In this document: piece after piece, positions 7,378-20,211 of the stretch
Numbering within the stretch: position 1 is the first letter of the stretch
Layout: each line of letters opens with the position of its first letter
Source: Desulfurococcales archaeon
GTDB taxonomy: Archaea; Thermoproteota; Thermoprotei_A; Sulfolobales; Acidilobaceae
DNA length: 24,000 nt
Direction of reading: 5' to 3'
Assembly (NCBI GenBank): GCA_015521705.1
Contig: WANR01000001.1
Coordinates: 1 to 24,000 of the forward strand
Program-made: the position numbers and the translations under genes
The notes under the pieces: model-generated
What the model was told of the DNA's origin: nothing
Database searches by the model: none
What the model saw: the letters and a program-made list of their open reading frames with translations, nothing else

Positions 7378-7466
7378 CCTTATACTAATTTTCTTTTTCT
7401 CAGCTCTATTAAAGAGATTGGGTGCGGTGCTTGGATCAATTGCCAGCGAGGAGAAAGCAGGGCAAC

Positions 7467-9290
7467 ATGATAACGGTGCTGATACTGATCTTTTTAATCC
7501 TAGCCCAAACCATAGAGGGCTACAATGCTACGGCCACAGAGAATAGTACGGTTCCTATAAGGGCTAGAATCAGCGTTCCTGCAGTTACAGAGGACGGGGG
7601 CTCCAGCATAATAAGTGTAGACATCGAACTGGCTGTTCCCGGTAATGGCAGTATTTTGGTGATTTCTGAGGGAGAGATCGACGAGACAACGGAATCTAGC
7701 ATGAAAATGGCTGTAACCACAGGTCTCCTGATGGCCGGTGTCAATTTCATGGAGGTTAACGCGGTGGTCAGGATAAATACTAGGGGCCTAATAGCGGGGC
7801 CCAGTGGTAGTTTCGGTGTAGCGTTAGCAACATACATGCTAGCCTCCGGTTTGAGCCCTTATCTTGTCGAAGGCTATGCGATAACCGGGGCCATATCGCC
7901 TGATGGGCTGGCTTCAAGAGTGGGATCCGTGTCTCTTAAATGCAAGGCTGCTGAGAGTGAGGGCCTCAAACTAATATATCCCCTGGCAAACCTGTCACCA
8001 GCTCTCATAGACGACTGTCCCGGCGGGGTTCCTACGCCGGGCGTCATAAACGCCACCTTAACCTTGACTGGTGCCGGCAAGCTGAATCTATCCATTGAAG
8101 TATCTATGCCTGAAGAGTTCCAGGAGGCTATGAGGGAGGCTGTAGGAAACCTTACCAGAGAACTAGAAGAGCTAGCTGAAAGGGAGGGCCTAGAGATACC
8201 ACCTACAATAGGTTACCTGGTCAACCAAAGCCTTAGACTGAGCAGCGAGCACCCCTACGCCGCCGCCAGCTATGCTTATAGAGCACTGCTAGGACTATAC
8301 ACTATTTATTATGCCATGCTCTTGAATGAGGGAAGCCTTGAACAAGTAGTAGCTGAGGAAACAACACGGCTGGGCTCCGAGCTGTCACGGCTGGAAGCCA
8401 TACTCTCCCGTGGAGAGCCTACTGGTTCTATCTATTACGTTGAAATGAGGGCTACAGCATATACAAGGCTGGCCGAGGCCTATTCCGTGCTACAGAGAGC
8501 CCAGGAGCTAGCATCAATAGAAGCCCCCATCGACGAGATAGCGAGCCTACTAGCCACAGCCCAGGCACGCATTGCCAGTATAGAGTCCTGGATAAACGTT
8601 TCTGAAAGGCTCTCAAATAAAGGCCCGCTAATGGACACGGAGTCTCTTGCAAGGCTTGAAAATGGTCTAAGAGCCTATATCGAGACGTCGGTCGACTACT
8701 CTCTGTCATTGATAAGATACTCTATTAAAAACTATGTACTGCCCGAATTCGTTAAGGCTAACCTACAAGTCTATCTAGACTCAGTAATCGACATTATGGA
8801 GAGAGCCGAGAGCTTTAGAGAGAGAGGAAACCTTGTGGCGTCTATAGGTTTTCTCCGCGAAGCCCTTTCAGAAAGCCTCTCAACCATTTTCACTCTCTCA
8901 GCCACCCAGGGAGGCGAGGGGGTCATTCAGGGCTACCTAGATGAAATAAGAAACATTTATGGCATGTTGCTGGCGCGGGTAGCCTCTAAGGGATACCCCG
9001 GAGGCCTGGCTCCAGCCTATGCAGACTATTCCATGGTTCTGGTAGGAGAGGATCCTAGAGCAGCGGTCGCTCTCATGGAAGAGGCAATCGCCTCTGCCAT
9101 ACTCTGGAATATCCTAGTCGTTACAGCTCTTAGTGGGAAGGAAGCTGCTGGCTCCCTAATAGGTGGCGCGCTGGCTACGAGTATAGAGGATCCTGTATTA
9201 ACGGCCGTGATAGCTATGGTATCGTACTCTATAGGCGTCATAGCTTCTACCCTAATAGCTAGGCTCGCTAGGAGGGGTAGATCGCTATAG
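7467..9290 (+). CDS. Exported membrane-anchored protein: N-terminal Lon-protease-like (S16) domain, long helical domain, C-terminal TM anchor
   Basis: The signal/anchor is MITVLILIFLILAQTIEG. The Lon_C-like motifs are LIAGPSGSFGVALA (Ser, nt 7803-7805) and ITGAISPDGLASRVGSVSLKCKAAESEGLKLIYPLAN (Lys). The C-terminal TM is VIAMVSYSIGVIASTLIA. Many N-x-S/T sequons are present. The track ORF starts at GTG 7422, but the TATA-like TCTATTAAAG (~7404-7413) favours ATG 7467. Confidence 0.7.
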   Translation: MITVLILIFLILAQTIEGYNATATENSTVPIRARISVPAVTEDGGSSIISVDIELAVPGNGSILVISEGEIDETTESSMKMAVTTGLLMAGVNFMEVNAVVRINTRGLIAGPSGSFGVALATYMLASGLSPYLVEGYAITGAISPDGLASRVGSVSLKCKAAESEGLKLIYPLANLSPALIDDCPGGVPTPGVINATLTLTGAGKLNLSIEVSMPEEFQEAMREAVGNLTRELEELAEREGLEIPPTIGYLVNQSLRLSSEHPYAAASYAYRALLGLYTIYYAMLLNEGSLEQVVAEETTRLGSELSRLEAILSRGEPTGSIYYVEMRATAYTRLAEAYSVLQRAQELASIEAPIDEIASLLATAQARIASIESWINVSERLSNKGPLMDTESLARLENGLRAYIETSVDYSLSLIRYSIKNYVLPEFVKANLQVYLDSVIDIMERAESFRERGNLVASIGFLREALSESLSTIFTLSATQGGEGVIQGYLDEIRNIYGMLLARVASKGYPGGLAPAYADYSMVLVGEDPRAAVALMEEAIASAILWNILVVTALSGKEAAGSLIGGALATSIEDPVLTAVIAMVSYSIGVIASTLIARLARRGRSL

Positions 9291-10911
9291 TTTCCGAGGT
9301 CTCGAGGGCCACGCCGAGCACGTAGTCTATGAGTTCGGACGACACCATTATACTTACGCCTGATATTAACAGGAGAACTGAGAAGTAGAAGAAGAAAGAC
9401 GTGCGGGTTCCAGGCATAACCCTGACTATGGCTAAGCTATTAAGTACGCTGGCAACAGCTATGAGGATTATGGACATGGTTACAAGATAAGGGGAGTCTA
9501 TAGCCTGGAAGGGGAACACGCTTATAACCTCCTCTGGTGCTTGTTCCATGATGTTTTGTAGTATGGAGGAGAACGCCAGCATTAGTTTAGAAATGAATAC
9601 AAGGATTATGACTACAGCCGCGTGCATAAGGTATAGCGTGGACTCGAACGTTTTGGCTACCTGCAACCTCTGCTTTCTCAGCCTTACCATTTCATTGTGG
9701 TGGTCTGAAAGCATTATACCCACCTTCTCAGGATCCCCGCCGTTCTTTAATGAATCAATGAATATGGTGACAGCCCTGCGCACTAGCTCGCTACCCGTCT
9801 CGGCTGCGAAGAGCCTCCATGCAGCTTCAGGCTTTAGACTATTGGCTAGTCTAGAGTATAATCTCCTGAGATAGGTGGCCAGCTTTCCCAGCTGGCTGAT
9901 AAGTAGGGGCTCTAGGGCTTTAACCATGTCTGGCAGTGTCGCTAGGTGCGTACCAAAGCTCCTAATGAATATAGGGAAGAAGTCGTCCACATTGTTTATA
10001 CTAGCCTCCACCCTTTTAGCCATGATCCCCAGGGGGAGCAATATTATTCCTGAAATGAGGAGGCCCCTGGCAGCCTCTTCGAAGGAGTCATTATACTTCA
10101 GCAGGTATAGGGAGCTTATCAGGGAGGCTAGGGCCAGGCCGGCAATGCCTGTTATGGAAAGAGCCTTGTATTTAAACAGCCTGGGCGATCCATAAAACTC
10201 GAAGGGCTCCCTGCCAACTAGCATGTAGAGCAGCGTTAGCATGCCGACAAGAGCTACCCCAACACCCATATATGAGGACGCTATTATGGCTAAGTTGCCC
10301 CCAAAGAAGAAGGCCATAAGCATGAAAGTAACAAGCACAAATATTAGCGAGCCAAGAATAGTCACGTATATTCCCATGAAGACCCTGGCAGTGTTCGTCA
10401 TCCTGTGATAGGCGTTTACATACTCGCTCATTAGAGTCCTATACTCTCTTTCCAGAAAAGTCTCTACATCCTCGCCGACAGCTAGAACCCCCGACATTCT
10501 CGAAAGCAGATTCTTCAGCACCAGGTTGTCGGCCTTGGATCCTACTATTCTGGTTGCCTGGGAGAAGCTATAGCCCCACTCCTTTCCGAGCCCGTATATC
10601 TTCCTCATGTAACGCGAATATGCCGGGTAGTTCTTCAGGTTCTTCGACACAGACTCGAAAAGTGCCGAGACTGGAGGCTTACCAGTTGCAACGCTTCTCA
10701 TGTGGAGGAGCATGTAGAGAAGGTCGTGGTCTATTATGGCCATGCTTCTCCGCACAAGAATCCTCCCTACCCCAAACCACAATATGACGAGGGTCGACGA
10801 GGCTGCCGCCATTACGGAGAGCGGGGGCTTTAAGAGTAGCAATAGTGCAGCAGCTAGCGTGGCTGATAACGACGCTGAGACCACGGCTCTTAGAGTCAGC
10901 CTGTCTTCCAC
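9268..10911 (-). CDS. arlJ: Archaellum polytopic membrane platform protein ArlJ (FlaJ)
   Basis: A 547 aa multi-TM protein with two cytoplasmic helical domains (T2SS-F-like), immediately after arlI. The GTG start is preceded by AGGTGA, which spans the arlI stop. Confidence 0.85.
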   Translation of the reverse strand: MEDRLTLRAVVSASLSATLAAALLLLLKPPLSVMAAASSTLVILWFGVGRILVRRSMAIIDHDLLYMLLHMRSVATGKPPVSALFESVSKNLKNYPAYSRYMRKIYGLGKEWGYSFSQATRIVGSKADNLVLKNLLSRMSGVLAVGEDVETFLEREYRTLMSEYVNAYHRMTNTARVFMGIYVTILGSLIFVLVTFMLMAFFFGGNLAIIASSYMGVGVALVGMLTLLYMLVGREPFEFYGSPRLFKYKALSITGIAGLALASLISSLYLLKYNDSFEEAARGLLISGIILLPLGIMAKRVEASINNVDDFFPIFIRSFGTHLATLPDMVKALEPLLISQLGKLATYLRRLYSRLANSLKPEAAWRLFAAETGSELVRRAVTIFIDSLKNGGDPEKVGIMLSDHHNEMVRLRKQRLQVAKTFESTLYLMHAAVVIILVFISKLMLAFSSILQNIMEQAPEEVISVFPFQAIDSPYLVTMSIILIAVASVLNSLAIVRVMPGTRTSFFFYFSVLLLISGVSIMVSSELIDYVLGVALETSETIAIYPS

Positions 10912-10921
10912 GAGTGGTCAC

Positions 10922-13900
10922 CTACAAAAGCCTGTCCTGCTGTAGCAGCCTGTAGGCTTCCTCTACCCCTATACTATACGCCTTCACTATGGCCTTGTAC
11001 ACATCGAAGTAGTCCAGCACACCCTTGCCAGCTAATAGCTTGAGGAACCTGGCACGCAAGTCTAGCTCCTCGTAAATCTCTCCGATTCTACGCCTCGGTA
11101 TGCCCCTCATCACAGCTATCTTCTCCTCTAGGAGGTAACTAGAGCCCCTGCCAGAGAACATGAACCTGTCAGTCACAGGATCCCATGTGAATACCGGGAC
11201 TGCAGCTATAGCGCCTGAGTCGGGATCGTAGCCTATTATCTCGTTTATGCTTAGAACCCTCCTAGCAGGGAAGCCCTTCACGTAAACAGCGCTCTGGAAC
11301 CACGCAATGTTCAAATTGTCAATGTTTGTCTTGGGCACGTTTATAGGGTGATTCGTTAGCCTCTGGATCAGTCTCTCGAGATTGGCGGCGTGAAACGTGG
11401 CCATTACAGGGTGACCTGTCTGCATCGCCTGGAACGCGATGTTCCCCTCAGCCCCTCTTATCTCACCTACTATTATGTAGTTGGGCCTCTGCCTGAGAGC
11501 GGCTCTTAGGAGGTCAAACATTGTCACACTACTCTCTGCTTTACCAGTGTCCCTGGTGAGTTCTCTAGTCCAGTTGGGGTGAGGTAGCACAACTTCAGCC
11601 GTGTCTTCTATGGTGACGATCTTGGCCGTGGGCCGTATAAAGGCGGAGATGGCGTTCAAAGACGTTGTTTTACCGCTTGCAGTATTATGAGCCAAAACAC
11701 CCCCCAGGCCTGCTACAAAGTTCTCGGTGCCTGGTACTGAAAGATCATAGACATACCTAACCCTCTCGCAGCAGGGCTTAACCTCTATTACTTCGTCTAG
11801 AAACACATCGCCTAATTCTTCGGGTTCTGCCCTGGCAGCATACGCTTCTACAACTAGAAGCCCCATGCCACCTGCATGGTGCTGATAGTGATTCTCGCTA
11901 GCTGCTGGGGCGAGGGATCTGCTTTGGCCCCTAACGGCCTCGCACAGTTTCTTGCTGGTCTTACAGAAGAGATCCGACGACTTTCCAGCAGCTGAGACTA
12001 GCTTATTAAGATCCCTAAGCTTGATCTCAAGAAAACTCTCTCTTCCAGGCTTTCCAAGCTCTATAATAGTTACTATGCCAAGCGCGTGTAATAGCAAGGG
12101 AAGCCCATGGAGTAGTGAACGAGAGCCAATGCCTAGCTTTACAACATCGCCTACTACTTCTACATGCTTGGAGCCAGCTATGAATCCCAGCAGGAAAGAG
12201 GCTATCTTGCTCTCTTTGAGGCCAAAAATAAAACCGGGAAGCCTCCTATAGTGCTCCTCGTTGGCTATTCCTAGGGCCTCGATTATTGAAGCGAAAACTT
12301 TGGACTTCACCACTATCCTGTGACTTCTACCATTTAGACGCCTGGCTTCTACCCCGTAAATCCTTCTAATGAGGTTAGAAACAATGTCGGATCCTTCCAG
12401 GTTTTTCGGCGAGAGCCAAACACTATTCATGGACTCCGACACATTAGCGTTTGCCATTAAAAACCCTAGAAGAAAAGCAAATTCATGATCCACCTTTATG
12501 ATAGGCCGGATCCTAACCTTTGCTTTCCAAGAAGTCAGTCTTCCCCCTACAATAGAGAACCCGATATTTTCTGGGCCCCCTATGCCAACTGCTTGTCCGC
12601 AACCTTCAGCTCCTCCATCCCTGTCTCTAAATAGGTCAGACAAGTCCAGCGAGTCCATATCACTGAATCCTGACGGCGTCCTAAGCGGCACTATTATTTT
12701 GTCGCCAGGCCTAAGCTTTTCCACGCTTATAGGGGCTATGCTGCCTCCGCGGACTGTGAATAAGCTGTGGTCGCCTGTGACCCTGATCCTTCTACCAGTC
12801 CTTGTTACTACCTCATAGATCCCGGAGAAAGGCTTATGCCTGATGAAGCCTCTTATAGGCCTGAAAACGAACTTGAAGGTTTTAGGGTCTAGGGTCAAGG
12901 CATCGTACTCCCAATACTTATCTTCAAGCTCTTCAATCCTAAGTATCTCCAAGAACCCTGTCTTCCTGTTCCTGACAATTACGGGCTCTCCCTCAGCTAT
13001 GCTCTCGCCGCAGATGAAAACACTCATACCCTCACTGAGCATCATCCACATATATGCCGCTATAACGTGGTCGAAGGTGCCCCACTTTATTAGCTGGGTT
13101 AGGCTGACAGGCACCTTAGATACTTTCCTGATGGTGAAGTTGGATCCTCTTAGACTCACATCGGAGCCGAAAACGATGTTTATCCTGCTACCGTCTGGCA
13201 GGGTGGCGTCAACTATGGGCCTGGCTCTTGTCAGTGGTTTCCCTATTTTCTCTCCCAGCTTTATTATGAACTCGTCCAACTCCCTCTCGCTAGAGAAGCC
13301 TACATTGGACTCCATAGAGCCGAACATTTTATGGACAACGTAGATCGGGCCTATCCCATTAGCAGTTATATCCTCAAGATAGGGATCCCTCAGGAAGGGC
13401 TCGAGAAGCCCGACGCCTACCTTGTCTCTTATAATGTGATACTTTAGGTAGTCGAGATCCCTTTTGCCGACTATGACCCTTAGCCCCTTAGTTCTCGGCT
13501 TCGAATAGTCGACATTCTTGTCAGTCGGCAATACAACGCTAGATAAGGCCTCTAGTAGTATATACTTTTTCTCCTCGCTAGATGATGGGACCTCCTCTCT
13601 TATAGCGAATGGTAGTAACTCCTCTATTATGTCTAGCAGGCTCTTGGGAGGCCTGGGCGGTTCTATAACTATATACCTGCTATACCCCGACTCCCCCCTC
13701 TTACTAAGTGCATGTATGAATATGCCAGAGCCTACAGGGTAAACTATGTTGAAGCTCTTAGCATTCTTCATGGCAGAAGGTATTTTTTCTACAAGCTCCG
13801 GCCTTTCACCCATCTCCTCTTCTACCTTCTTCATGTATTCTTTCAAGTAGTGGGGCTCCTTGCCAAAATCCGGAGGTTCTTCCCTCTTTCTCGACCTAGC

Positions 13901-13936
13901 CCTTTTACCTCTCCTCACGGAGATGCCGAGAGCCAC
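10922..13936 (-). CDS. arlI: Archaellum motor ATPase ArlI (FlaI), interrupted by an intein in the Walker A loop
   Basis: Exteins carry IEPPRP, DPYLEDI, RPIVDATLPDGSRINIVFG, FICGE|TASGKTTSLNAI, RQRPNYIIVGEIRG and GHPVMATFHA. The track ORF starts at GTG 13945. That GTG lies inside a perfect SD, GGAGGTGAT, so GTG 13936 is the more likely start. Confidence 0.93.
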   Translation of the reverse strand: MALGISVRRGKRARSRKREEPPDFGKEPHYLKEYMKKVEEEMGERPELVEKIPSAMKNAKSFNIVYPVGSGIFIHALSKRGESGYSRYIVIEPPRPPKSLLDIIEELLPFAIREEVPSSSEEKKYILLEALSSVVLPTDKNVDYSKPRTKGLRVIVGKRDLDYLKYHIIRDKVGVGLLEPFLRDPYLEDITANGIGPIYVVHKMFGSMESNVGFSSERELDEFIIKLGEKIGKPLTRARPIVDATLPDGSRINIVFGSDVSLRGSNFTIRKVSKVPVSLTQLIKWGTFDHVIAAYMWMMLSEGMSVFICGESIAEGEPVIVRNRKTGFLEILRIEELEDKYWEYDALTLDPKTFKFVFRPIRGFIRHKPFSGIYEVVTRTGRRIRVTGDHSLFTVRGGSIAPISVEKLRPGDKIIVPLRTPSGFSDMDSLDLSDLFRDRDGGAEGCGQAVGIGGPENIGFSIVGGRLTSWKAKVRIRPIIKVDHEFAFLLGFLMANANVSESMNSVWLSPKNLEGSDIVSNLIRRIYGVEARRLNGRSHRIVVKSKVFASIIEALGIANEEHYRRLPGFIFGLKESKIASFLLGFIAGSKHVEVVGDVVKLGIGSRSLLHGLPLLLHALGIVTIIELGKPGRESFLEIKLRDLNKLVSAAGKSSDLFCKTSKKLCEAVRGQSRSLAPAASENHYQHHAGGMGLLVVEAYAARAEPEELGDVFLDEVIEVKPCCERVRYVYDLSVPGTENFVAGLGGVLAHNTASGKTTSLNAISAFIRPTAKIVTIEDTAEVVLPHPNWTRELTRDTGKAESSVTMFDLLRAALRQRPNYIIVGEIRGAEGNIAFQAMQTGHPVMATFHAANLERLIQRLTNHPINVPKTNIDNLNIAWFQSAVYVKGFPARRVLSINEIIGYDPDSGAIAAVPVFTWDPVTDRFMFSGRGSSYLLEEKIAVMRGIPRRRIGEIYEELDLRARFLKLLAGKGVLDYFDVYKAIVKAYSIGVEEAYRLLQQDRLL
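11684..13003 (-). mobile_element. Intein (440 aa, Ser1 ... His-Asn / Thr+1) with a LAGLIDADG-like endonuclease domain, inserted in the arlI P-loop
   Basis: Covers aa 315-754 of the ORF. Block A is SIAEGEPVIV, block B VTGDHSLF, block F VYDLSVPGTENFVAG and block G GGVLAHN, followed by T. The C-terminal boundary codons were checked on the sequence (att=Asn at 11684-11686, agt=Thr at 11681-11683). The N-terminal boundary was derived from the ORF frame. Confidence 0.9.
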
Positions 13937-13948
13937 AAGTATCACCTC

Positions 13949-14686
13949 CTAAGCCCGCGCCAGCGCTATGGGGACAATCTTAATGCCGAAGGCAGGGTCT
14001 ACATCGTACGTTATTGTAGACTCGAAGGAGGTAGGGGCACCTTTTAGCTTGATTATCTTCATGACCTTGACGCTTTTACCGCCAACGACGGCCGTGGAGA
14101 GCGAGATATAACCATCGCATATAGCGCGGGCCCGAGTTACGAGATCCTCTCTCACAATGTTGGGGTGTATGGTAAGTATCACGGATTTTCCTCTATCCAC
14201 AAGTATCCTTGTCCTGTTGAAGTAGTTCATAACGTTAGATGGAGTAGCGTAGATCGCTAGATGGCTCAGCGAGTCTACCACAAAGACGTCGTAAGAGTCT
14301 ACAGCTTCAAACATGTAATTTCCCAGGATAGAAAGGAGCTTCGAAACGTGCTCTTTCACCCATTTAGCCCCGGGAAGCTGTAGAGAGTAAACCGTGAGGT
14401 ACCCCTTCACGTAGTAAGTCGACAAGTCTACCCCGGCCGACCTAGACTTCTCAACGTACCCCCTAGCAGTTAGCTCGCTCGTTACAACAAGGACCCGGAG
14501 CTCGCTGACCAGAGCCCCATAGACTAACTGCTGTGCAAGCACTGTCTTTCCAGTGCCGTGGATCCCCTCTATTATTATGAGTGATGGGTGGGGTATTCCT
14601 CCTCCAAGCTTCATGTCAAGCTCCTCGTTACCTGTCGTTATGAGCCTTCTCCTATCCCCATTACTGGGCCCTGCCTGGTGAGCCAT
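13949..14686 (-). CDS. arlH: Archaellum KaiC-like ATP-binding protein ArlH (FlaH)
   Basis: ITTGNEELDMKLGGGIPHPSLIIIEGIHGTGKTVLAQQ (Walker A) and FVVDSLSHL. ATG 14686 is preceded by GGGGGTG. The track ORF starts at TTG 14701. Confidence 0.9.
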   Translation of the reverse strand: MAHQAGPSNGDRRRLITTGNEELDMKLGGGIPHPSLIIIEGIHGTGKTVLAQQLVYGALVSELRVLVVTSELTARGYVEKSRSAGVDLSTYYVKGYLTVYSLQLPGAKWVKEHVSKLLSILGNYMFEAVDSYDVFVVDSLSHLAIYATPSNVMNYFNRTRILVDRGKSVILTIHPNIVREDLVTRARAICDGYISLSTAVVGGKSVKVMKIIKLKGAPTSFESTITYDVDPAFGIKIVPIALARA

Positions 14687-14688
14687 CT

Positions 14689-15192
14689 CTAGCACCCCCA
14701 AAGCCTGTAGTAAGCCTTACCTCCCCCACTATCGACGAAGATGAAAGTTATGGGAGCCCCCACATCCGCGGGAGGGCTTAGAGCTCCTTTGATGACGGCT
14801 ACCTCTCCAGGATATATGCTACCGTAGGGTTGAAGAACGGCCCCATTGGCTATCATAGCTACTAGGCTCCAATCTTTATCATGATACAGGATCACGGTTA
14901 CGTTACTGCCCGTAACATTGTCCTTATATGAGGCTATTATCTCGCTGGCGTTAAAGTCCCAGAGTACGCCAGGACCCCTGTTCTCTAGGTGTAAATAGAA
15001 GGCGTCGCCCGCACAGGTAACGTTGGCATAGATTATTGATAGAAGGGCCCCATAATAGGGTCTCTCAACAGCTTCTATAGCACTGACAGCAGTGTTATAG
15101 AGAAGCTCCGCCATGACCCCTGAAAGGACCGAGACAGCTATGATCAGTGCAACGGCCACGAAGCCTGAAGAGATCACAACGCTAAACCCCAA
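14689..15192 (-). CDS. arlF: Archaellum stator/S-layer-binding component, ArlF (FlaF)-like
   Basis: An N-terminal hydrophobic helix (GFVAVALIIAVSVLSGV) is followed by a beta-rich domain. Its position between arlG and arlH matches the crenarchaeal order B-X-G-F-H-I-J. The F versus G assignment rests on synteny only. Confidence 0.6.
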   Translation of the reverse strand: MGFSVVISSGFVAVALIIAVSVLSGVMAELLYNTAVSAIEAVERPYYGALLSIIYANVTCAGDAFYLHLENRGPGVLWDFNASEIIASYKDNVTGSNVTVILYHDKDWSLVAMIANGAVLQPYGSIYPGEVAVIKGALSPPADVGAPITFIFVDSGGGKAYYRLWGC

Positions 15193-15206
15193 GGCTACCA
15201 GGCCTC

Positions 15207-15698
15207 CTATGGGAGCGGGTAGACCTCGCGGATCGTGGCCCCTACTGGTAGTATCATTCTGAATTCGACCGGAGAATCTATCCTGGTGCTCGAATAGACG
15301 TGAATGATGAAGGTTTCATCCTTCTCCCAGACCCCGTCTCCATCGCCTTTCTCGGTGTAGTTCCAGTAGCCAGCCCCTCCAGAAGCGTTGTACTGGAAGA
15401 GGAATAGCTTCCCCCTGTATGTCCCCAGATATACGTCAGAGGACTCTATGGAGGTAACGCTGGCTGAGCCCACGTTTTTGATGTAAATACTATACTCGTA
15501 AACATTGCCAACAACCCTCTCTTCCATATAAGCGACGACCAACTGGACTCTTAGAGCATCTGTTTTGATGCTCAGAACCTCGGAGAGAGTACTACTTATG
15601 TCGTAGACTCTAAGTAAAACAACAACCGAAAAGGTGGCGGCCAAGCTCACGGCTACTATTGTTAGTAGCGCGTGAGCTATGACTGTCGTTTCTCCCAA
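15207..15698 (-). CDS. arlG: Archaellum component ArlG (FlaG)-like
   Basis: An N-terminal helix (VIAHALLTIVAVSLAATFSVVVLL) is followed by a beta-rich domain. It follows the arlX-like gene and overlaps it by 22 nt. The assignment rests on synteny. Confidence 0.6.
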   Translation of the reverse strand: MGETTVIAHALLTIVAVSLAATFSVVVLLRVYDISSTLSEVLSIKTDALRVQLVVAYMEERVVGNVYEYSIYIKNVGSASVTSIESSDVYLGTYRGKLFLFQYNASGGAGYWNYTEKGDGDGVWEKDETFIIHVYSSTRIDSPVEFRMILPVGATIREVYPLP

Positions 15699-16552
15699 TC
15701 CTCTCCACCGTCGAGCATGTCAAGGATATAGCCCATCGCCTCCTCCTCTAGTGAACCGTCACGTACGCCTGAAGCCTTGGCCAAGGCGTAGAGCAGGATT
15801 AGCTGTTTTTCTGGGGGGATCCCGGACTCGCGAGCCTTCTCTACTAAGTCTGCCACCTTCAGCATAACATCCTTAAGATCACCCGGTATAAGTCCAACTC
15901 TGTCAAGGATCTCTATCATGGCATCGAGGTTCTCTTTTGGCGCTTTTTTCCTGACCAAATACATGACCCTTATCAGCCGGGGCAGGTTAATCCTCAACTT
16001 CCCGCCATCAACACTAGCTTGCAGGGCATTATGCCTCTTGCGATCTCTAGCCGTTTCTGGGTAATAGTGCAGGGCCCCGGCCTCGACGCTCTCATGGTCT
16101 CCCAGCCCAGCCGCTCTTGCCTCAGGCTTACTGTATCCCCCTTTGTTTTCTTTCGCCTGCTCTCTTACCTGGGCTTTAGCCTCACCAGCTGGCTGGGCTA
16201 CTATCGAGTGTAAAGGGTGGGGTGATATGTTTTGGGAGGCGCTTAGGGGTATTAATGGCTCTGAGGAGCTAGACTCCTCGTCTTCCTCCTTGCCTGGCTT
16301 GCGCATAACGTTAAACGGGTTATTTATCTCGCTAAGGGCCGACCTAAGCTCTATTATGCTTTCTCTGAGGGCTTCAACCAAGTCCTTTAATTCTCTTAGC
16401 TCACTACTTGTAGGCGTCTCCTGCTTTTCTTCCCTGACTTCCTGTTCTTGAGACACTACTTGGACACCTCCCTCCCTACTACCCTTCATAAGTGGAAGGA
16501 CAAGGACTCGGCATATCGGGCAGTTGCATGGCCACTCGCCATGAGCCCTCAA
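15677..16552 (-). CDS. arlX: ArlX (FlaX)-like coiled-coil archaellum scaffold protein; no TM segment in this ORF
   Basis: The coiled-coil segment is SELRELKDLVEALRESIIELRSALSEINNPFN (FlaC/FlaX-like). An acidic/low-complexity linker follows. The C-terminal helical domain, LPRLIRVMYLVRKKAPKENLDAMIEILDRVGLIPGDLKDVMLKV, is reminiscent of the FlaD/E-type domain. The start is uncertain: TTG 16552 or ATG 16489. Confidence 0.55.
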   Translation of the reverse strand: MRAHGEWPCNCPICRVLVLPLMKGSREGGVQVVSQEQEVREEKQETPTSSELRELKDLVEALRESIIELRSALSEINNPFNVMRKPGKEEDEESSSSEPLIPLSASQNISPHPLHSIVAQPAGEAKAQVREQAKENKGGYSKPEARAAGLGDHESVEAGALHYYPETARDRKRHNALQASVDGGKLRINLPRLIRVMYLVRKKAPKENLDAMIEILDRVGLIPGDLKDVMLKVADLVEKARESGIPPEKQLILLYALAKASGVRDGSLEEEAMGYILDMLDGGEDWEKRQS

Positions 16553-16803
16553 CCCCGACCACCATGCCTACCACCCATGGCTATGGCTGAGACGATTAGC
16601 AGGTGAACCCCAACCACTATCGCCACTAACGCTATAGCGTAGACTCCCAGGTCTTGCCACCTTTCTAGCGGCCACGGGCCTCTTGGAGAGAAAAAGCCGA
16701 GTAGGTAGAGGCCCGTGGCCGCTAGGGCGGCCCCTTGAAATACTATTATTAATATTTTATATAAAAAAACATTTGATTTATATTTAGGGTTTCCTGGCTC
16801 CAT
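16549..16803 (-). CDS. Small membrane protein (84 aa, two predicted TM helices) between arlB and arlX
   Basis: The hydrophobic helices are ILIIVFQGAALAATGLYLLGFF and VYAIALVAIVVGVHLLIVSAIAM. The 5' third of the ORF is an AT-only tract that looks like terminator plus promoter, so the true extent is doubtful. Confidence 0.4.
   Translation of the reverse strand: MEPGNPKYKSNVFLYKILIIVFQGAALAATGLYLLGFFSPRGPWPLERWQDLGVYAIALVAIVVGVHLLIVSAIAMGGRHGGRG
16746..16769 (-). promoter_or_regulatory. Oligo-T tract (T7 on the minus strand, 16763-16769) followed by the TATA-like TTTATATAAAATATTAA: candidate arlB terminator plus internal arlX promoter
   Basis: Read directly. The tract lies 45 nt downstream of the arlB stop. 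Archaeal intrinsic termination uses oligo-T, and TATA boxes are A/T octamers. Confidence 0.35.
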
Positions 16804-16813
16804 TCCCTACCCC

Positions 16814-17467
16814 TTAGCTCATGTCCACCGCTCCATCTGTGGGTAACGATGCTGGCACTATCCTTTCAACAGTCAGAGGGGCTCCGTCAGCTACTCTCAG
16901 TTCTACAGAGATCTTAGTGTAGGAGCCGTATCCTGCGTTCAGCTCTACAGCAAGTACTGCTTTCTCGCCGAATTCTAGAACGTTGTCGTTGTCTCCCTTG
17001 AGCACTATTATCTTAGCCTCGGGCTTTGTAGTATTGCTTGGGGACCCTGTTGTTAGCTTGCTCAGTATCGTGCTTAGGTCAGCAGTTATAGCGCTGGTTA
17101 GCGACGTGTCTATACCCGTGTATATGTTTTCGTAGGCCACGCTACTACCATCTGGCTGTGTCACTATTAGCCTCACGGATGTCCTGTCTACAGATAGATC
17201 CACGCCTTCTCTTCCCGGGGCAACCTTTAGCGGCACAATTATCGCGTCGACAGTGCTACTAGTCACGTTACCCGTCACTGAGCCGTCGATCTCCAATGCT
17301 GTAGATGCCTGAGCTAGCCCTCTCCCAATGGTTTCTTTGCTCTTCTGTGTTGTGAACATCCCCATGTTCAGGGCTACGAATGCCAGCGCCGCGGCTACTA
17401 TGACGAACGCTATCATTACTATCGCTGCTTCTATGCCCACGATACCCTTTCTTTTCTTCCTAGCCAC
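16814..17467 (-). CDS. arlB: Archaellin ArlB (FlaB) with class III (type IV pilin-like) signal peptide
   Basis: RKKRKG/IVGIEAAIVMIAFVIVAAALAFVAL is a typical archaellin N-terminus. The C-terminal domain is beta-rich with N-x-S/T sequons. The track ORF starts at ATG 17509. GTG 17467 is preceded by GGGGGTGA and gives a short signal peptide, MARKKRKG. Confidence 0.9.
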   Translation of the reverse strand: MARKKRKGIVGIEAAIVMIAFVIVAAALAFVALNMGMFTTQKSKETIGRGLAQASTALEIDGSVTGNVTSSTVDAIIVPLKVAPGREGVDLSVDRTSVRLIVTQPDGSSVAYENIYTGIDTSLTSAITADLSTILSKLTTGSPSNTTKPEAKIIVLKGDNDNVLEFGEKAVLAVELNAGYGSYTKISVELRVADGAPLTVERIVPASLPTDGAVDMS

Positions 17468-17688
17468 TCTCTCACCCCCTGCTGGGGGTCGGTTTCTGGC
17501 TTCTGGCATTCGAGGGTCTAATTAAGCCCCTAATGGCGGCGACCGCTAGCCGAAAACATCCCCGAGGCGGCTCGATTGTTGGTAGAGGACAGTCTATGAG
17601 CCGTCTACTCTCTGCGCCCCGTGATCGCCGCGGATAGTGGCAACAAATTATCTTCAGAAAGCCTCAAAAGAAGAACAGGTGGGATTAC

Positions 17689-19186: not shown

Positions 19187-19456
19187 CTATTCTTGTCGGG
19201 TTTCAAGAGCCATATCTGGGTTAAAGCTTATGTACTGGATCATGCTACCTCTTATCAGCACCTTACCCACTTTCGCGACAATGTCTTTTCCATCATTCTT
19301 CAGCTCCATAGCATCTTCTAAAATTAGATTCATTGTCCCGTCAGTAACTTTCAGGGTGCCCACGTACTCGCTTCCATCTTTTAATTTTACATAGATTTGG
19401 GTGTCTATAGCGTTTTTGAGATACCTCAAGGGGCTAATAGTGCCTGGCCTCACCAC
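19187..19456 (-). CDS. Sm-like archaeal protein (SmAP/LSm)
   Basis: Sm1 is IYVKLKDGSEYVGTLKVTDGTMNLILEDAME and Sm2 is KVLIRGSMIQYI. GTG start. Confidence 0.9.
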   Translation of the reverse strand: MVRPGTISPLRYLKNAIDTQIYVKLKDGSEYVGTLKVTDGTMNLILEDAMELKNDGKDIVAKVGKVLIRGSMIQYISFNPDMALETRQE

Positions 19457-20211
19457 GCTACATTACCTCTCTTTCATCCTAGCTACCACACTTTTCTATC
19501 ACACACGTTTGGAGATTTAAATGTTAATTGTTATCAGAATCTTGTTCTGAAAGAAAGGCGGAACCCGTAGCAGACACATGATGGGTTATTAAATAAATTT
19601 TAAAATAATTAAAACAATTAAATAAAATTATGCCAAGTTTCCAGGTTCTCTCCCCCGATTTCGAAGCTGGGGAAAAGAGGTCGTAGGCCTCCTCCCTACC
19701 TAGGTCTATACAAACCTGGGAAAAGCCCTTGCTACAAGCTGTGCCAACACAGTAGCAATGAGCGTCAATAGTTATCCGCGAATTTTAATGAAGCATCATA
19801 TACACTTGAGGGAGTGCAAGCTCAATAGAATACGAGCCTGGCGAGGGGAGAGAAGGCTGGGGCAACGTGTGAACCTGCCTTCGGCGAAGGAGGTTGAAAA
19901 AGCTGATGACAAGCTCCGACAACAGCCAGGGGTCGGAGGGGGCTGTCATTGGTTTATGAAAGCTTAGGCGGGATCCAAAAATAGTTCCAGGCTATAGTAG
20001 TGGGTGAGAGGACTGTTTTCAGTAGCCCCTTGCCCGCCGTTTTAAGGTAGAGTTTGCCCTTTATGAAACGAGTTTATAAGCTTAGCCTTGAGTGTATAGC
20101 GGGATAGAAATAAATATTTCCATTAAGCGATTCTCCCCTTGAGCTGGCTCGATAGCCTGGCAGCGTGGCTACTATATGTGTATGGGGTGAACGGCGTCGA
20201 ACCATCTGCTC

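Follow-up and report, generated by a model that had tools for sequence, protein, structure and literature searches.

We take the archaellum motor ATPase ArlI (FlaI) to be a member of COG0630. Inteins located in the P-loop of an ATPase mostly split it at G-K/T (here and below a slash marks an insertion point). The P-loops of DnaB, MCM, RFC-S and other ATPases were described as preferred intein sites by Novikova et al. (2016, PMC4760082), where this clustering was argued to suggest selective retention. Table 3 of the same study counts 21 archaeal inteins under 'VirB11, COG0630', from Crenarchaeota, Euryarchaeota and other archaea, with the hosts labelled as P-loop NTPases. COG0630 ATPases and P-loops are thus already catalogued as intein hosts and the general phenomenon is established. 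Inteins of class 1 are recognised by Ser or Cys at position 1, Thr B:7, His B:10, Asp F:4, His G:6, Asn G:7 and Cys, Ser or Thr at position +1 (PMC4031507). In this study we analysed a window of 24,000 nucleotides from an uncultured Desulfurococcales archaeon of hydrothermal vents (contig WANR01000001.1, positions 1 to 24,000), in which the arlI gene carries an insert of 440 amino acids (aa) that cuts the Walker A motif in two. We concluded that the insert is very likely a selfish, LAGLIDADG-bearing class-1 intein, which would be spliced out constitutively and have no regulatory role. In the literature we found no paper on an intein in FlaI/ArlI or on the insertion point G-E/T; papers with co-occurring terms were unrelated, and the main text of PMC4760082 lists no sites. 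The parts of the precursor are as follows, with site a denoting this insertion point.

10922-13945, minus strand: arlI (flaI) precursor open reading frame (ORF), GTG start, 1007 aa
13004-13945, minus strand: N-extein, aa 1-314, ending ...MSVFICGE, aligned to residues 5-263 of FlaI 4II7
13004-13009, minus strand: N-terminal half of Walker A, Gly-Glu, equal to G262-E263 of S. acidocaldarius FlaI in the alignment
11684-13003, minus strand: predicted class-1 intein, 440 aa, precursor aa 315-754, with a nested LAGLIDADG-type domain; Pfam and NCBIfam matches, sequence and fold matches in the PDB
12674-13003, minus strand: N-terminal splicing module (blocks A and B), intein aa 1-110, including Ser1 (13001-13003); TIGR01445, 55-65% identity among site-a inteins
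12767-12778, minus strand: block B, T76-G-D-H79 (Thr B:7, His B:10), invariant in 7 of 7 site-a inteins
12509-12673, minus strand: variable linker or accessory region, intein aa 111-165; 13-33% identity among site-a inteins, predicted local distance difference test (pLDDT) score below 50 at 127-146
11684-11803, minus strand: C-terminal splicing module (blocks F and G), intein aa 401-440, with VYDLSV (Asp420 = F:4) and ...LAHN (His439, Asn440); TIGR01443, 58-75% identity among site-a inteins
10922-11683, minus strand: C-extein, aa 755-1007 and stop codon, first residue Thr+1 (11681-11683); Pfam T2SSE over aa 754-865
11666-11683, minus strand: C-terminal half of Walker A, Thr-Ala-Ser-Gly-Lys-Thr, with the Lys aligned to K268 of S. 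acidocaldarius FlaI

The host protein was identified from its exteins. The FlaI equivalog model NF058587 of NCBIfam matched the precursor in two segments, one on either side of the insert, with a score of 666 bits (cut-off 550). When the intein was removed in silico, a spliced ArlI of 567 aa resulted, which aligned to S. acidocaldarius FlaI (PDB 4II7/4IHQ) with an E-value of ~5e-172; the junction and the Walker A motif were gapless through FVCGETASGKTT, with ...SVFICGETASGKTTSLNAI in the query facing ...NLFVCGETASGKTTTLNAI in FlaI. In FlaI (4II7) numbering the insertion point is E263/T264, five residues ahead of K268, the lysine of Walker A, and in the spliced protein it is Glu314/Thr315. The intein thus interrupts Walker A between Glu and Thr (G-E/T-A-S-G-K-T), and splicing would rebuild GETASGKT, which follows the pattern GxxxxGKT. 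The segments IIVGEIRG and AMQTGH, which we take to be Walker B and the His box, were present and conserved relative to FlaI 4II7. We concluded that the host is a bona fide archaellum motor ATPase ArlI and no paralogue. A preliminary description made from the letters of the window had proposed the 1007-aa ORF, the intein at aa 315-754 (11684-13003) and the split of a canonical Walker A; its coordinates proved exact to the base, and the colinearity that it expected with characterised FlaI proteins was seen in the alignment to 4II7.

The insert carried the features of an intein throughout. Its junctions read ...MSVFICGE / SIAEGEPVIV...GGVLAHN / TASGKTTSLNAI, with TGDHSLF at intein residue 76, VYDLSVPGTENFVAG at residue 418 and a terminal His-Asn followed by Thr+1. 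The Pfam model Intein_splicing matched with 76 bits (E 3.6e-21, cut-off 35.8), and the terminal models TIGR01445 (intein_Nterm, 27.6, cut-off 24.5) and TIGR01443 (intein_Cterm, 28.3, cut-off 15.6) also scored above their cut-offs. The Ser1, TGDHSLF, VYDLSVPGTENFVAG, GGVLAHN and Thr+1 features named in the preliminary description are all present. The class-1 residue set of PMC4031507 is complete in the ArlI intein: S1, T76, H79, D420, H439, N440 and T+1 were invariant across all seven site-a inteins described below, which are otherwise only 34-51% identical overall. The splicing modules were 55-75% identical among site-a inteins, compared with 15-23% for the endonuclease region (43% against P0006, the nearest relative). 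The intein contains five cysteines, at positions 135, 347, 354, 411 and 412, none of which is conserved among site-a inteins. From these residues the element is judged to be a genuine intein of class 1, lodged in the Walker A P-loop of ArlI. A domain of 440 aa parts the two P-loop halves, so the unspliced precursor should not bind or hydrolyse ATP; that ArlI ATPase function would depend on splicing, as the preliminary description held, is a sound inference from the position of the insert.

The distribution of the intein was surveyed in the 120 best precursor homologues from a collection of 5.8 billion proteins. Among these, 52 exceeded 620 aa in length, which was explained by insertions at two sites. 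Site a (CGE/S...HN/TASGKT) was occupied at the same codon boundary in seven proteins (P0001-P0006 and P0009), of which P0001 comes from the same population as the window allele (99.8% extein match). Site b (AMQ/S...ALHN/TGH), 88 residues downstream, was occupied in 44 of the 120 by motif, with five further proteins of a Caldisphaera type. Four proteins carried both (P0002, P0003, P0005 and P0009); the window allele has site a only. All named sources of site-a proteins are metagenome assemblies from deep-sea vents (Desulfurococcales archaeon S146_67, Pyrodictiaceae archaeon S146_92 and REYS20-1). An exhaustive phmmer search of 1.84 billion cluster representatives, with the intein as query, returned the clusters of P0001, P0006 and P0003 as the only ones with a site-a intein, and superseded a word-index search with the intein alone, which was insensitive and gave three proteins. 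In the JGI metagenome contigs, junction-spanning alignment gave 35 loci, with ...HN/TASGKT in none of the 18 inspected, the other 17 being low-identity matches that ended at the intein terminus. A scan of viral contigs found no relative, and thus no sign of a viral vector.

Closely related arlI alleles differed in whether they carried the intein. P0004 has it and P0033 does not, at an extein identity of 97.0%; P0002 has it and P0008 does not, at 98.6%; and the intein-free allele nearest to the query, P0007, is 78% identical in its exteins. When the exteins were stripped of their inteins and placed in a neighbour-joining tree, carriers of the site-a intein fell in at least five separate places, each beside alleles without it. 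At the DNA level, an occupied locus (L117) and an empty one (L118), which share the arlH-arlI-arlJ context, were 90-92% identical in their flanks, and the 1461-nucleotide intein of the first was precisely absent from the second between ...TGTGGTGAG and ACAGCTAGC..., leaving the empty site ATGAGCGTATTCATATGTGGTGAG/ACAGCTAGCGGCAAGACCACTAGT. The empty allele L118 thus confirms that a colinear, conserved host protein is regained once the element is taken out. The search for the same site and for intein-free alleles in relatives, suggested in the preliminary description, thus gave both. Such sporadic and precise presence or absence is the signature of a homing element, and the existence of intein-free alleles means that ArlI works without the intein. 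Judged by this distribution pattern, the site-a intein is a mobile and dispensable element.

Between the two splicing modules lies a domain with the following features.

11804-12508, minus strand: LAGLIDADG homing-endonuclease-like domain, intein aa 166-400 (235 aa), probably inactive; Pfam LAGLIDADG_3 21.5 bits, just under the cut-off of 22.5, fold matches to I-DmoI and PI-PkoII
12446-12472, minus strand: first LAGLIDADG helix, LLGFLMANA (178-186), Asn185 in place of the catalytic acid; aligned to LLGYYVSEG of PI-PkoII and LLGLYLSEG of P0002
12167-12196, minus strand: second LAGLIDADG helix, FLLGFIAGSK (270-279), Ser278 in place of the catalytic acid; aligned to FLEGYFIGDG of PI-PkoII and LLGAYISGDA of P0002

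The best sequence relative of the intein in the PDB was PI-PkoII (2CW7, E 1.2e-21), and TFIIB and VMA inteins were also found. An AlphaFold model was built on the alignment of the seven site-a inteins and reached a mean pLDDT of 75.7 and a predicted template modelling score (pTM) of 0.80, with low-confidence loops at 127-146 and 362-397. Foldseek matched the model to 2CW7 (PI-PkoII), 7QSS (TliVMA), 7QST (PhoVMA), 1DQ3 (PI-PfuI) and 1VDE (PI-SceI), with E-values from 3e-23 to 4e-10. The splicing domain, as predicted in the model and not solved as a structure, superposed on the mini-inteins 5O9I, 2LCJ and 4E2T with a root-mean-square deviation of 2.2-2.6 Å. The endonuclease insert of the model alone gave fold matches to the free-standing LAGLIDADG enzymes I-DmoI and I-Tsp061I, and its two LAGLIDADG helices lay at 173-185 and 264-277 in a pseudo-symmetric alpha-beta fold.

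At the positions of N185 and S278, PI-PkoII has its catalytic Glu and Asp. Both acids are also present in P0002, P0004 and P0005, and P0006 has Asn and His at the two positions. Experiments on the PhoVMA intein showed that it does not cleave without the block C and block E acids and that cleavage returned when these were grafted back (PMC8966425). Since both catalytic acids are replaced in the ArlI intein, its endonuclease is probably inactive. Substitutions were also seen in two further site-a inteins, with YISGGAS as the second motif of P0003 (D to G) and LYLARG as the first motif of P0009 (E to R); endonuclease decay in these two lineages appears to have been independent.

Following the established class-1 pathway and the conserved residues, splicing would start with an N-O acyl shift by Ser1, continue with the attack of Thr+1 on the ester to give a branched intermediate, and release the intein by cyclisation of Asn440 with the assistance of His439; an O-N shift would then restore the peptide bond and yield the 567-aa ArlI with an intact P-loop. 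In the cell, splicing is most likely efficient and constitutive at the high growth temperature of the host, with no regulatory role. The selfish intein would have entered arlI alleles of several crenarchaeal lineages of vents by homing. As both catalytic acids (N185, S278) are lost, the intein is probably immobile in the window lineage and vertically inherited. It would be kept there only because imprecise loss would wreck a motif that the protein cannot do without, and the splicing residues would be maintained through selection on the host gene. The window lineage may therefore be placed at the 'degeneration' stage of the homing cycle.

Several points weigh against this explanation. The GC content at third codon positions is lower in the intein (0.49, endonuclease part 0.47) than in the exteins (0.57 and 0.62) and in arlJ and arlH (0.59-0.60), a mild compositional trace that is compatible with a foreign origin or with relaxed codon selection and is mute on function. 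The extein tree carries no bootstrap or other support values, so independent gains and losses are not separable in it. The window and an independently assembled copy of the locus (L081) differ in 10 codons of arlI, too few for a selection test. The endonuclease-like domain is full-size (235 aa) and confidently folded despite its dead site, and could have a residual role in DNA binding, splicing support or extein contact. Finally, splicing competence, rate and temperature dependence are inferred from the residues only.

The alternative that survives best is that the intein has been domesticated as a conditional-splicing switch. It would be immobile and kept since environment-dependent splicing, responding to temperature, ArlH, ArlJ or nucleotide, gates archaellum assembly and rotation, as proposed for the RadA P-loop intein. 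A post-translational gate on motility had also been raised in the preliminary description. The P-loop position speaks for it, because it would make ArlI activity strictly splicing-dependent, and so do the loss of the endonuclease active site from a domain that is still full-size with a confident fold, the vestigial endonuclease loop of P. horikoshii RadA, which controls conditional splicing (PMC5790916), and the selective retention that Novikova et al. argued from P-loop clustering (PMC4760082). It is opposed by the distribution: sister alleles that are 97-98.6% identical occur with and without the intein, and most ArlI orthologues are without it. Related site-a inteins have intact LAGLIDADG acids and apparently an intact endonuclease, which points to the behaviour of a mobile element. 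Sporadic presence, an intein-free majority and an intact endonuclease in relatives are together the features of a selfish mobile element, and a motility gate found no support in them. In addition, no conserved intein-extein feature was identified, and the operon, with its ArnR-like regulator and arlB promoter region, gave no hint that a gate would be needed. We therefore consider such a switch improbable.

A redox form of the gate, which the preliminary description had also suggested, is disfavoured and was rejected. The nucleophiles Ser1 and Thr+1 are oxygen nucleophiles and the intein has no catalytic or conserved Cys, so that a disulfide or redox trap as in Cys-dependent inteins is not available. 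Temperature-dependent splicing in vitro, as in many inteins of hyperthermophiles, is possible, but the data contain no pointer to regulation. A narrower proposal is that the endonuclease-dead intein is kept as a thermal or partner-dependent (ArlH, ArlJ, nucleotide) switch, so that functional ArlI hexamers form, archaella are assembled and cells swim under defined conditions only; we hold this to be a little less probable still. If true, it would be the first case of a motility machine controlled after translation by an intein.

Less probable again is a dead-end insertion, in which splicing has been lost, leaving arlI as in effect a pseudogene and the cells unable to swim. In its favour, oxygen nucleophiles such as Ser1 and Thr+1 are by general chemistry intrinsically less reactive than Cys, and the decayed endonuclease indicates that the element is old in the window lineage. 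All splicing residues are nevertheless intact and invariant across seven alleles of 34-51% overall identity, and neither the 3-kb ORF nor any part of the operon is disrupted. Conservation of the exteins is strong, at 99.8% to P0001, with synonymous differences only, and at 78% to P0007, the closest allele without an intein; in the comparison of the window with L081, extein differences were likewise synonymous only. These data leave a dead end very improbable. An artefact of a chimeric or misjoined contig, conceivable as the source is evidently a metagenome assembly, has next to no probability and was excluded, because the independent assembly L081 (ENA ERZ23495177, REYS20-1_SAMN12239308) agrees with the window in the allele and in the genes around it (99.8% nucleotide identity across 8.96 kb), six further proteins from several public sources carry an intein at the same codon boundary, and the reading frame runs through both junctions without a break.

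The arl operon of the window is complete, in the order arlB-X-G-F-H-I-J, with arlI between arlH and arlJ; its upstream part spans 14689-17509 on the minus strand, and a divergent ArnR-like regulator also lies upstream. This gene order, that of Sulfolobus, is of the crenarchaeal type. The neighbours of arlI are listed below.

9268-10911, minus strand: arlJ (flaJ), membrane platform gene, directly downstream; NCBIfam NF004705, 469 bits, cut-off 400
13949-14701, minus strand: arlH (flaH), KaiC-like partner of ArlI, directly upstream; NCBIfam NF004723, 287 bits, cut-off 194
14689-15192, minus strand: putative arlF, by position only
15207-15698, minus strand: arlG, weak ArlG match and Pfam Arch_flagellin match
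15677-16552, minus strand: ORF of 291 aa in the position of ArlX, by position only, without Pfam or NCBIfam match
16814-17509, minus strand: arlB, archaellin, with the archaellin N-terminal domain TIGR02537

Outside the operon, a 622-aa ORF on the plus strand (7422-9290), convergent on arlJ, was without a Pfam or NCBIfam match; it also stands next to arlJ in L081, as a gene of 607 aa. An 89-aa ORF on the minus strand (19187-19456) has a Sm-like look by eye. It is followed by ~750 nucleotides of low GC content (~0.44; within 19187-20211) without an ORF of at least 70 aa, an Rfam match or significant repeats. Rfam and tRNA scans of the whole window gave no match.

Intein insertion extends well beyond ArlI in this superfamily. 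Among the 147 nearest analysable intein relatives (P0123-P0269), 42 (~29%) sit in ArlI/T2SSE-like ATPases. Breakpoint mapping gave seven recurrent sites besides G-E/TASGKT, namely DGS/, SNF/T, GGTASGK/T, IED/T, GEIRG/, AMQ/TGH (site b) and TGHDG/C, which brings the superfamily to at least eight insertion points. Two of these lie within the P-loop (GE/TASGKT and GGTASGK/T). A single protein can hold up to four inteins, with three or four in P0130 (2140 aa), P0129 (2011 aa) and P0145 (2097 aa).

Some of these elements differ in their termini. At site b, the Caldisphaera-type ArlI proteins (P0104, P0108, P0109, P0111 and P0114) have an element that starts with Cys1, ends ...PLED/TGH and has a C-terminal Asp in place of His-Asn, and the elements at the SNF/T site (P0129, P0145 and P0150) start with Cys and end ...FD/T. 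By their non-canonical C-termini, the Caldisphaera-type site-b and SNF/T elements are assigned to another intein type than the Ser1...HN elements that other lineages carry at site b. In P0228 (~878-1448) a 565-aa element occupies the KlbA site (TGHDG/V...SN/CMGTLHA), with Val1 instead of Ala, a Ser-Asn end and Cys+1, and is classified from these residues as a large KlbA-like (class-2-like) intein.

The present allele adds a motility motor to the ATPases with an intein-occupied P-loop. Its insertion point, G-E/T-A-S-G-K-T in ArlI, is one for which we found no description in the literature, and the intein is a rare allele of a well-known kind of element. Taken alone, it leaves the understanding of archaellum regulation unchanged. 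The most useful by-product is the intein-site map of the ArlI/secretion-ATPase family, which with at least eight recurrent sites and up to four inteins per protein is a dense intein sink, and hence a good natural system for intein site choice and movement between paralogues. As the precursors are annotated generically ('TadA', 'T2SS/T4P/T4SS family', 'partial'), surveys of archaella by gene length or domain will mis-handle them. Hyperthermophile inteins with Ser1 and Thr+1 are also candidates for heat-activated splicing tools.

Among known systems, close parallels are the P-loop inteins of RadA (Pyrococcus/Thermococcus), DnaB (site b), MCM (site a) and RFC-S (site a). According to PMC4760082 these are likewise class-1 inteins in the Walker A motif of an oligomeric ATPase, the activity of which needs splicing. 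Their hosts serve replication or repair, whereas ArlI is a motility ATPase of the secretion superfamily. The split in ArlI, G-E/T-A-S-G-K-T, lies four residues upstream of the G-K/T split found in paralogous ATPases of the superfamily (GGTASGK/S...). The P. horikoshii RadA mini-intein 4E2T was among the structural matches to the ArlI splicing domain; conditional splicing is known for the RadA P-loop intein. The 21 COG0630 inteins of Novikova et al., given without insertion sites or gene identities in the main text of PMC4760082, sit in the same protein superfamily as the ArlI intein, and an ArlI Walker A site may be among them. The site-a carriers found are all from metagenome assemblies, none of them from a cultured strain, and at least some (REYS20-1 and the WAQK/WAQN records) appear to be later than that survey.

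Within the same host gene, the site-b intein (AMQ/TGH) mostly shows a class-1 signature as well (Ser1, ...ALHN, Thr+1) and co-occurs with site a in the four proteins named above. It is common in assemblies of Desulfurococcales, Fervidicoccaceae, Zestosphaera and Caldisphaera, and far commoner than site a (44 and five proteins against seven).

KlbA (Mja KlbA/MJ0781; PDB 2JMZ, 2JNQ), which had been put forward as a precedent in the preliminary description, is likewise a paralogous archaeal ATPase of the secretion superfamily with an insertion in a conserved motif of the nucleotide site. The precedent held for the ATPase family and failed for the site and the splicing class. The KlbA site, TGHDG/A.../C, lies in the His box ~93 residues downstream of ArlI site a, and KlbA inteins are of class 2, with Ala1, Ser G:6 and a Cys+1 that attacks directly (PMC4031507, PMC2807308), in contrast to Ser1, His439 (G:6) and Thr+1 of the class-1 ArlI intein. 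KlbA as the same allele was thus ruled out by insertion site and splicing class. The Mja KlbA chain matched the ArlI intein weakly in sequence (E 8e-4); the precursor in 2JMZ starts MNTGHDG/ALAYDEP... and aligns across the junction with P0228.

In architecture, PI-PkoII (2CW7), the DNA polymerase intein 2 of T. kodakarensis, was the best match to the ArlI intein both in sequence and in structure (Foldseek E 3e-23). It shares the HINT and LAGLIDADG arrangement and the C-terminal blocks ...YVYDLSV..ENF..G.G...AHN, and differs in its host, DNA polymerase B, in an overall identity of ~20% and in having kept both LAGLIDADG acidic residues. The PhoVMA intein (7QST) is closest in its state of decay: it is likewise from an archaeal hyperthermophile, has kept the LAGLIDADG fold and lost the block C and E acids, and was placed at the 'degeneration' stage of the homing cycle (PMC8966425). 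Its host is V-ATPase subunit A, it starts with Cys1 and its block E is truncated, whereas in the ArlI intein both helices are full length and the acids alone are substituted.

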